Below, in pieces: positions 60,420 through 60,872 of a stretch of DNA of 64,000 bases (position 1 is its first letter; every line of letters starts with the position of its first letter). The DNA is from Escherichia coli. GTDB taxonomy: Bacteria > Pseudomonadota > Gammaproteobacteria > Enterobacterales > Enterobacteriaceae. The notes beneath the pieces are model-generated. The model was not told the origin of the DNA and made no database searches. It saw nothing but the letters and a program-made list of their open reading frames with translations. The position numbers and the translations under genes are program-made. The stretch is from the NCBI RefSeq assembly GCF_003334385.1, contig NZ_QOWN01000012.1. One strand, 5' to 3'.

Positions 60420-60514
60420 GCATGATTCACCCGTAGCGGTTGCTTCCCGCGCTTCCATAGAAATCCCCTCGATTTGAACATTTGGTTCTTATGGCAAAGA
60501 TTTAGTCTAAGCAG

Positions 60515-60529
60515 GCAAGATTTACGCCA
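60515..60529 (-). promoter_or_regulatory. Candidate sigma-54 (-24/-12) promoter for xdhABC
   Basis: Minus strand reads TGGCGTAAATCTTGC (TGGC-N7-TTGC with GG/GC at consensus spacing), ~95 bp upstream of the xdhA ATG; ygeV (sigma-54 activator) is adjacent. Confidence 0.45.
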
Positions 60530-60872
60530 GAAACGACGATAAGCGTTAGGGGAGGTAGGAAGTGTGATGACGTTAAAAAAACACAGATATGATACGAAAC
60601 AGGACTCTGAATAGGGGCAGTGATACGTATCAATATGAGTGGCGATAAAATCAATGTGATAAATTGGGATTATTACGCATCAGGATGGGAAATAGGGTAA
60701 AAAGTCAGGAAGTTCGATACCTCTACAGCGAATATTTTGCTGATGATACTTCCCTTTGCCAAATGAAATTAACCTCTTTCTCTATTACCACGTTTTTCCA
60801 GAAGCAAGAGATTGGGTATCAAGAGGCTGGCTGCTATGATAAGGCGTCTTGTTTTTTAAGCGAGGAAAGATT

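Follow-up and report, generated by a model that had tools for sequence, protein, structure and literature searches.

The classical enhancer-dependent sigma-54 promoters of Escherichia coli are activated from a distance, by NtrC at glnAp2, by FhlA at hyc/hyp and by PrpR at prpB. The promoter of the xanthine dehydrogenase operon xdhABC belongs to the same class and is already known from the literature of 2001 to 2015 and from EcoCyc, so that the promoter itself adds nothing new here. Its earlier cataloguing goes back to Reitzer & Schneider 2001, as cited in PMC10602906, and Lamoureux 2023 referred to that work for the previous identification of sigma-54 promoters upstream of xdhABC and ygeWXY, while assigning xdhABC to the "YgeV iModulon". 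In Zhao 2010 (NAR, PMC2831329), the promoter of xdhA (b2866) was printed as tttcTGGCGTAAATCTTGCCTGctta, at -110 to -93, and microarrays were reported to show xdhA rising 4.9-fold upon sigma-54 induction and falling 2.1-fold in an rpoN deletion. The identical 17-mer was listed in Bonocora 2015 (PMC4591121) as the intergenic ChIP-seq site OS29, with a fold-above-threshold value of 11, a distance of 84 nt from xdhA and the flag "C", which stands for experimentally confirmed in EcoCyc. A second system of relevance is that of DioR, an enhancer-binding protein of the Clostridiales, for which a regulon comprising dpaL, ygeW-ygfK-ssnA-ygeY, yqeB, pbuX and hyp-xdhABC was predicted computationally by Nie, Dong & Yang 2019 (PMC6615313), the supplementary site lists giving operators such as ATTTATCATAATGATAAGG and AATTCTCGTATTGATAAAA.

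The window analysed here is a stretch of 64,000 nucleotides of E. coli DNA, in which positions 60420-60872 represent the divergent intergenic region between xdhA and actS/ygeR, the latter reading away on the plus strand from 60873. The xdhA-xdhB-xdhC operon occupies 56796..60458 on the minus strand, as given by the open reading frames and by the RefSeq annotation of an identical region. It is served by a sigma-54 -24/-12 promoter element at 60514..60530 (minus strand; CTGGCGTAAATCTTGCC), in which the GG lies at 60527-60528 and the GC at 60515-60516. The minus-strand reading of 60514-60530 is cTGGCGTAAATCTTGCc, with the TGGC...TTGC core at 60515-60529, and the 7 nt that separate TGGC from TTGC in TGGCGTAAATCTTGC correspond to the canonical sigma-54 spacing, with both dinucleotides in place. 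The preliminary description had located such a pair on the minus strand about 95 bp 5' of xdhA, and this was accurate, as the TTGC ends 96 nt 5' of the K-12-style xdhA start (ATG 60419); the corresponding distance to the longer RefSeq-style start (ATG 60458) is 57 nt. Applying the rule of Bonocora 2015, transcription is predicted to start at 60503 on the minus strand, 19 nt 3' of the motif centre, which is 84 nt away from the K-12 xdhA start (60419) and matches the distance listed by those authors. The element is thus the same as the catalogued xdhA promoter in sequence, strand and gene, without any difference. The surrounding 501 nt were found at 100% identity in many complete genomes, and 5,314 of 5,426 genomes carried them at ≥95% identity over ≥80% of the query.

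Several further features of the region concern the xdhA start codon and the flanking DNA. The open reading frame from ATG 60458 encodes 765 aa, the K-12 annotation beginning 13 codons later, and the xdhA orthologues were all called at the long start. A Shine-Dalgarno-like GAGGGGA is present at 60464..60470 (minus strand), 6 nt before ATG 60458, and a purine-rich box of the AGGGG/AGGAG type was seen at the Shine-Dalgarno position in most of the 10 genera compared below, being weaker in Morganella. The long start is probably the correct one, which would make the 5' untranslated region about 45 nt rather than 84 nt in length. Searching 60350-60950 against Rfam for leader RNAs and riboswitches, such as that for Moco, gave no match at E ≤1. 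Beyond actS, a tRNA-Gly gene and an integrase gene are found at approximately 61700-64000, and in the matching genome E2865 (L001, 1-19200) IS66 elements and a degraded type III secretion cluster come next. The segment has the appearance of a genomic island that entered at the tRNA and is unrelated to the xdhA promoter.

The window contains four copies of the bare TGGC-N7-TTGC pattern, 4.9 being expected; it thus occurs at chance frequency, and the pattern alone is no evidence. A sigma-54 weight matrix was built from 38 intergenic sites defined by ChIP-seq, the four sites of this cluster being left out. When the region was scored with it, as had been proposed, the xdhA site reached 12.0 bits and ranked 5th of about 128,000 window positions, the ygeW site being 1st and the ygfK site 7th. 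The training sites themselves ranged from 7.7 to 21.0 bits with a median of 16.6, and the xdhA site therefore falls within their range but under the median. Comparison loci beyond E. coli were fetched through XdhA homologues from Citrobacter, two Klebsiella, Kluyvera, Yokenella, [Enterobacter] lignolyticus, Morganella, Hafnia and Edwardsiella, counted as nine other genera (10 in all). Within the 500 nt upstream of xdhA, the orthologous site was the top sigma-54 match in each of the 10 genera, scoring 10.2-15.9 bits with the next best at ≤8, and the 17-mer always stood in the sense orientation and began 56-95 nt before the xdhA start codon. The promoter was conserved despite the fact that the gene upstream of xdhA differs among these genera, being actS, a DUF554 gene, mutS, a KDGP aldolase gene, another activator gene, a small YuaE-family gene or dapB. 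TGGCG and TTGC were invariant in the cross-genus alignment (A1), against a mean column identity of 46%, and the most divergent E. coli examined (96.4% identity) carried none of its 18 differences in the promoter core or in the upstream elements described below (the dyads and the TCACA block). The xdhA site stands out only when the full weight matrix and its conservation in 10 genera are considered. With the OS29 ChIP-seq signal, the 4.9-fold and 2.1-fold responses to sigma-54 induction and rpoN deletion and this conservation, the earlier proposal that xdhABC is a sigma-54 target is supported; as the promoter is also in print, the idea was correct but not new.

A search for activator inverted repeats at 60560-60750 had also been suggested, and two of them were found there, both upstream of the sigma-54 promoter and both of the form T[AC]TCA-N3-TGA[TG]A. 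Dyad 1 (60649..60661, minus strand; TATCACATTGATT) is centred at about -152 and scores 12.4 bits, and dyad 2 (60628..60640, minus strand; ACTCATATTGATA) is centred at about -131 and scores 13.9 bits, both scores being those of the dyad matrix described below; both are candidate YgeV sites. They are 13-bp imperfect palindromes of the TATCA-N3-TGATA type, positioned 21 bp apart from centre to centre, and by our count the pair recurs with a separation of 20-21 bp in seven of the nine other genera. The exceptions are Edwardsiella, in which the dyads are 42 bp apart, Hafnia, which has three sites, and Morganella, which has one clear site. Neither these dyads nor the TCACA block are mentioned in the readable papers that catalogue the xdhA promoter, and literal literature searches with four dyad sequences returned unrelated papers only, suggesting that the E. 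coli dyads are so far unreported. A perfect palindrome, TGATACGTATCA (60620-60633, minus strand), overlaps dyad 2 and gives an FNR-like TTGATACGTATCAC with one mismatch; within alignment A1, this FNR-like sequence is confined to E. coli.

The same dyad was found at the sister promoters of the cluster. A dyad matrix was built exclusively from the non-E. coli xdhA dyads, so that a scan of the E. coli window with it was free of circularity. Its top three matches in the window lay upstream of ygfK, ygeW and ygfT, each 178-213 nt 5' of a sigma-54 17-mer mapped by ChIP-seq, and the two xdhA dyads ranked 5th and 6th. Five matches of at least 13.5 bits were observed, against 0.2 expected from dinucleotide shuffles, and in the AT-rich fraction alone there were four against 0.1 expected. 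At ygeW, the sigma-54 promoter lies at 54593..54609 (minus strand; CTGGCACACTTATTGTT; ChIP-seq site OS30) and the dyad, TATCAATATGAGA, at 54810-54822; at ygfK, the promoter is at 44957..44973 (minus strand; GTGGTGCGATTGTTGCT; OS31) and the dyad, TATCATAATGATA, at 45142-45154; and at ygfT, the sigma-54 site is at 29950..29966 (plus strand; TATGCCCGTTTATTGCA; OS32) and the dyad, TCTCATATTGATA, at 29772-29784. The ygeW dyad was located some 213-218 bp 5' of the 17-mer in E. coli and in six other genera. The distance from dyad to 17-mer is not uniform within the cluster, however, being 110-131 nt at xdhA as opposed to 178-213 nt at the other three promoters. Being both shared and deeply conserved, the dyad is a useful, and probably unreported, candidate for the YgeV operator of E. 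coli.

Two neighbouring observations were made during these scans. A strong dyad-like site of 14.5 bits, TCTCAATGTGAGA, is present within yqeC at 46532-46544, about 170 nt before the yqeB start. It was considered as a possible site for the published intragenic yqeB sigma-54 promoter (Bonocora site IS34), but it is downstream of that promoter. Within 29707-29997, the ygfT dyad (29772-29784) is only about 70 nt from the start of the divergent uacT; no sigma-54-like site facing uacT was found, the best candidate scoring 3.3 bits.

A further conserved block lies between the dyads and the promoter, at 60558..60570 on the minus strand (TCATCACACTTCC). It is centred at about -62, and the TCACA within it begins 37 nt 5' of the 17-mer. 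The TCAC was invariant in alignment A1, and all 10 xdhA promoters had TCACA at -37 (38 in two genera) from the 17-mer, with a conserved TTTTTAAC in front of it. TCACA at -37/-38 was also seen in promoters of the ygfK type, namely E. coli ygfK (45006-45010, minus strand) and ygfM of K. aerogenes and Kluyvera (near 11857 of L083 and 12035 of L089), while the ygeW and ygfT promoters are without TCACA at this spacing. The block gives a CRP-like match with only one good half and also resembles a dyad half-site; scanning with the IHF consensus gave no match to it.

The proposed activator is encoded by ygeV (54978..56756, plus strand), which converges on xdhC and was characterized by Pfam scan, motif searches and comparison of its helix-turn-helix (HTH). 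Its identification as an enhancer-binding protein with GAFTGA and an AAA+ core was borne out, with GAFTGA at residue 347, the Walker A sequence GESGTGK at residue 300 and a Sigma54_activat domain (PF00158, E = 2e-70); a C-terminal Fis-type HTH (HTH_8, PF02954, E = 3e-13) accompanies this sigma-54 interaction domain, as expected of such a protein. The distance of about 1.8 kb first given for ygeV was in error, as its 3' end lies 3.76 kb and its start 5.5 kb from the promoter, with xdhABC in between. In PMC9426417, YgeV/IsrR is labelled a two-component (orphan) response regulator. The Pfam scan of YgeV gave no match to Response_reg (REC), the N-terminus yielding a PAS match, a weak GAF match and nothing else, and the published label 'orphan response regulator' (IsrR) is accordingly loose, because YgeV is without a receiver domain. 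The N-terminal sensor region contains C84-x2-C87-x5-C93, which is invariant from E. coli to the Firmicute homologues and points to a site for a metal, an Fe-S cluster or a ligand. In K. aerogenes, Kluyvera, Hafnia and Edwardsiella (L083, L086, L087 and L089), the dyads and the sigma-54 promoter are kept and no ygeV lies adjacent to xdhABC. The xdhABC operon of Hafnia and Edwardsiella is placed between dapB and ispH.

Searching genome contigs with YgeV returned mostly generic AAA+ matches, together with one enterobacterial orthologue (L002) and a set of Firmicute homologues, the full-length members of which share 35-39% identity with it. Three of the Firmicute loci (L004, L006 and L007) were found to carry paired dyads 19 bp apart, approximately 110-150 nt 5' of sigma-54 promoters, and these promoters are strong, at 19-20 bits. 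In the two loci that were annotated, the genes driven are dpaL-ygeW-ygeY (L004) and a PreA-like gene with a selenium-dependent xanthine dehydrogenase (L007). Four of the five Firmicute homologues have the same HTH segment, LGIGIATLYRK, as E. coli YgeV, the fifth having two substitutions (alignment A2), and this identity fits with an operator that has remained unchanged.

The best explanation of these data, and one in which we place considerable confidence, is that the sigma-54 promoter of xdhABC is activated by YgeV from the two upstream dyads. Sigma-54 RNA polymerase occupies 60514-60530 in a closed complex, occupancy of this site being published, and YgeV would most likely bind both dyads, which are centred 21 bp from each other at about -131 and -152. 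From there, it may loop to the polymerase, its AAA+ domain opening the promoter through ATP hydrolysis by way of the GAFTGA loop, a step that we infer from the domains of YgeV, the evidence on the operator and the iModulon. As the same arrangement is present at ygeW, ygfK and ygfT, xdhABC would form one unit of a YgeV regulon for anaerobic purine/uric acid breakdown. Strong induction of ygfK and ygfT by uric acid has been reported, as has a need for ygeV in uric acid consumption; because ygfK and ygfT carry the same dyad, YgeV probably responds to uric acid, or to a related purine, during anaerobiosis. The preliminary description had named xdhABC as a YgeV target, and the support now available for this is indirect, consisting of the YgeV iModulon, the sharing of the dyads across the cluster and their match to the DioR operators. 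It had also called the YgeV regulon poorly defined, which still holds for direct binding data, as neither direct YgeV-DNA binding nor ygeV-dependence of xdhA was found in the searchable literature. Points that weigh against the explanation are the sub-median score of the promoter, the unequal distances of the dyads from the four promoters and the absence of an adjacent ygeV in K. aerogenes, Kluyvera, Hafnia and Edwardsiella, which retain the dyads.

It was also considered whether the sigma-54 promoter, though real, might be activated by another enhancer-binding protein, such as NtrC under nitrogen limitation, with the dyads bound by a factor other than YgeV. The neighbouring intragenic sigma-54 promoter for yqeB does respond to nitrogen limitation, and genomic SELEX placed an NtrC site within the operon, between xdhB and xdhC. 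However, when the intergenic region was scanned with NtrC, IHF, FNR and CRP consensus sequences, no NtrC-like dyad was found upstream of xdhA, the best match having five mismatches in 13 specified positions, and the stretch from the dyads to the promoter contained no IHF site. Furthermore, the sharing of the dyads is specific to promoters of the ygeV cluster, and they co-occur with YgeV homologues across phyla, making activation by a different protein improbable. A similarly slim and marginally smaller chance is given to the view that the sigma-54 polymerase is bound but rarely or never fires, xdhABC being transcribed mainly from a sigma-70-type promoter in the 414-nt intergenic region. The expression of xdhA follows the level of sigma-54 in both directions (Zhao 2010, PMC2831329), and 10 genera retain the -24/-12 core and the dyads, with their spacing, while the intervening sequence drifts. 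A sigma-70-like match is present at 60734-60762 on the minus strand, but it is weak (9/12) and of a kind found once against 0.8 expected by chance. [quoted passage not shown] That the motif is a chance match without function, as the unremarkable frequency of the bare pattern might imply, is scarcely credible and is already refuted by the published ChIP-seq occupancy and the cross-genus conservation, the matrix rank also being against it.

Activation by YgeV from the paired dyads is therefore retained as the preferred reading. The conserved dyad pair is the sole addition over the published promoter, and the modest value of the present analysis lies in this enhancer. Gut bacteria are now known to degrade uric acid anaerobically by means of the ygeV-xdh-ygf cluster, a matter of relevance to gout, and strains are being engineered by replacing the native promoters of the cluster (PMC12507026). 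A defined YgeV operator, common to four promoters and kept across phyla, would help in tests of YgeV sensing, in the design of uric-acid-responsive circuits and in the prediction of the regulon elsewhere.

Compared with the classical sigma-54 promoters, the xdhA promoter shows the same general architecture, in that a -24/-12 element is combined with tandem dyads, placed approximately 100-200 nt further upstream, and with a GAFTGA-bearing AAA+ activator. It differs from them in the sequence of the operator and in the lack of an IHF consensus between the dyads and the promoter, and YgeV differs from the classical activators in that its N-terminal sensor region contains cysteines and a receiver domain is lacking. 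As for DioR, the name YgeV does not occur in the DioR paper (PMC6615313), the two systems belong to different phyla, and the Firmicute homologues of YgeV are only 35-39% identical to it overall. The DioR operators nevertheless represent the same dyad as that of xdhA, of the TTATCA-N3-TGATAA or TTCTCA-N3-TGAGAA type, and the DioR regulon likewise combines a sigma-54 promoter with sites 100-250 nt upstream. Given Firmicute homologues with the same sites and the same neighbouring genes, YgeV may be the equivalent of DioR. We lean towards a wider interpretation, albeit with less assurance than for activation of xdhABC itself, in which the dyads would be a previously unreported E. coli YgeV operator common to xdhA, ygeW, ygfK and ygfT, the TCACA block would provide a further input, possibly through CRP, and YgeV and DioR would represent one ancient regulator of anaerobic purine/uric acid catabolism, kept together with its binding site from the Firmicutes to the Enterobacterales. 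The likeness between the two systems extends to gene content, with xdhABC, ygeW, ygfK, ssnA, ygeY, dpaL, yqeB and pbuX forming the common set.
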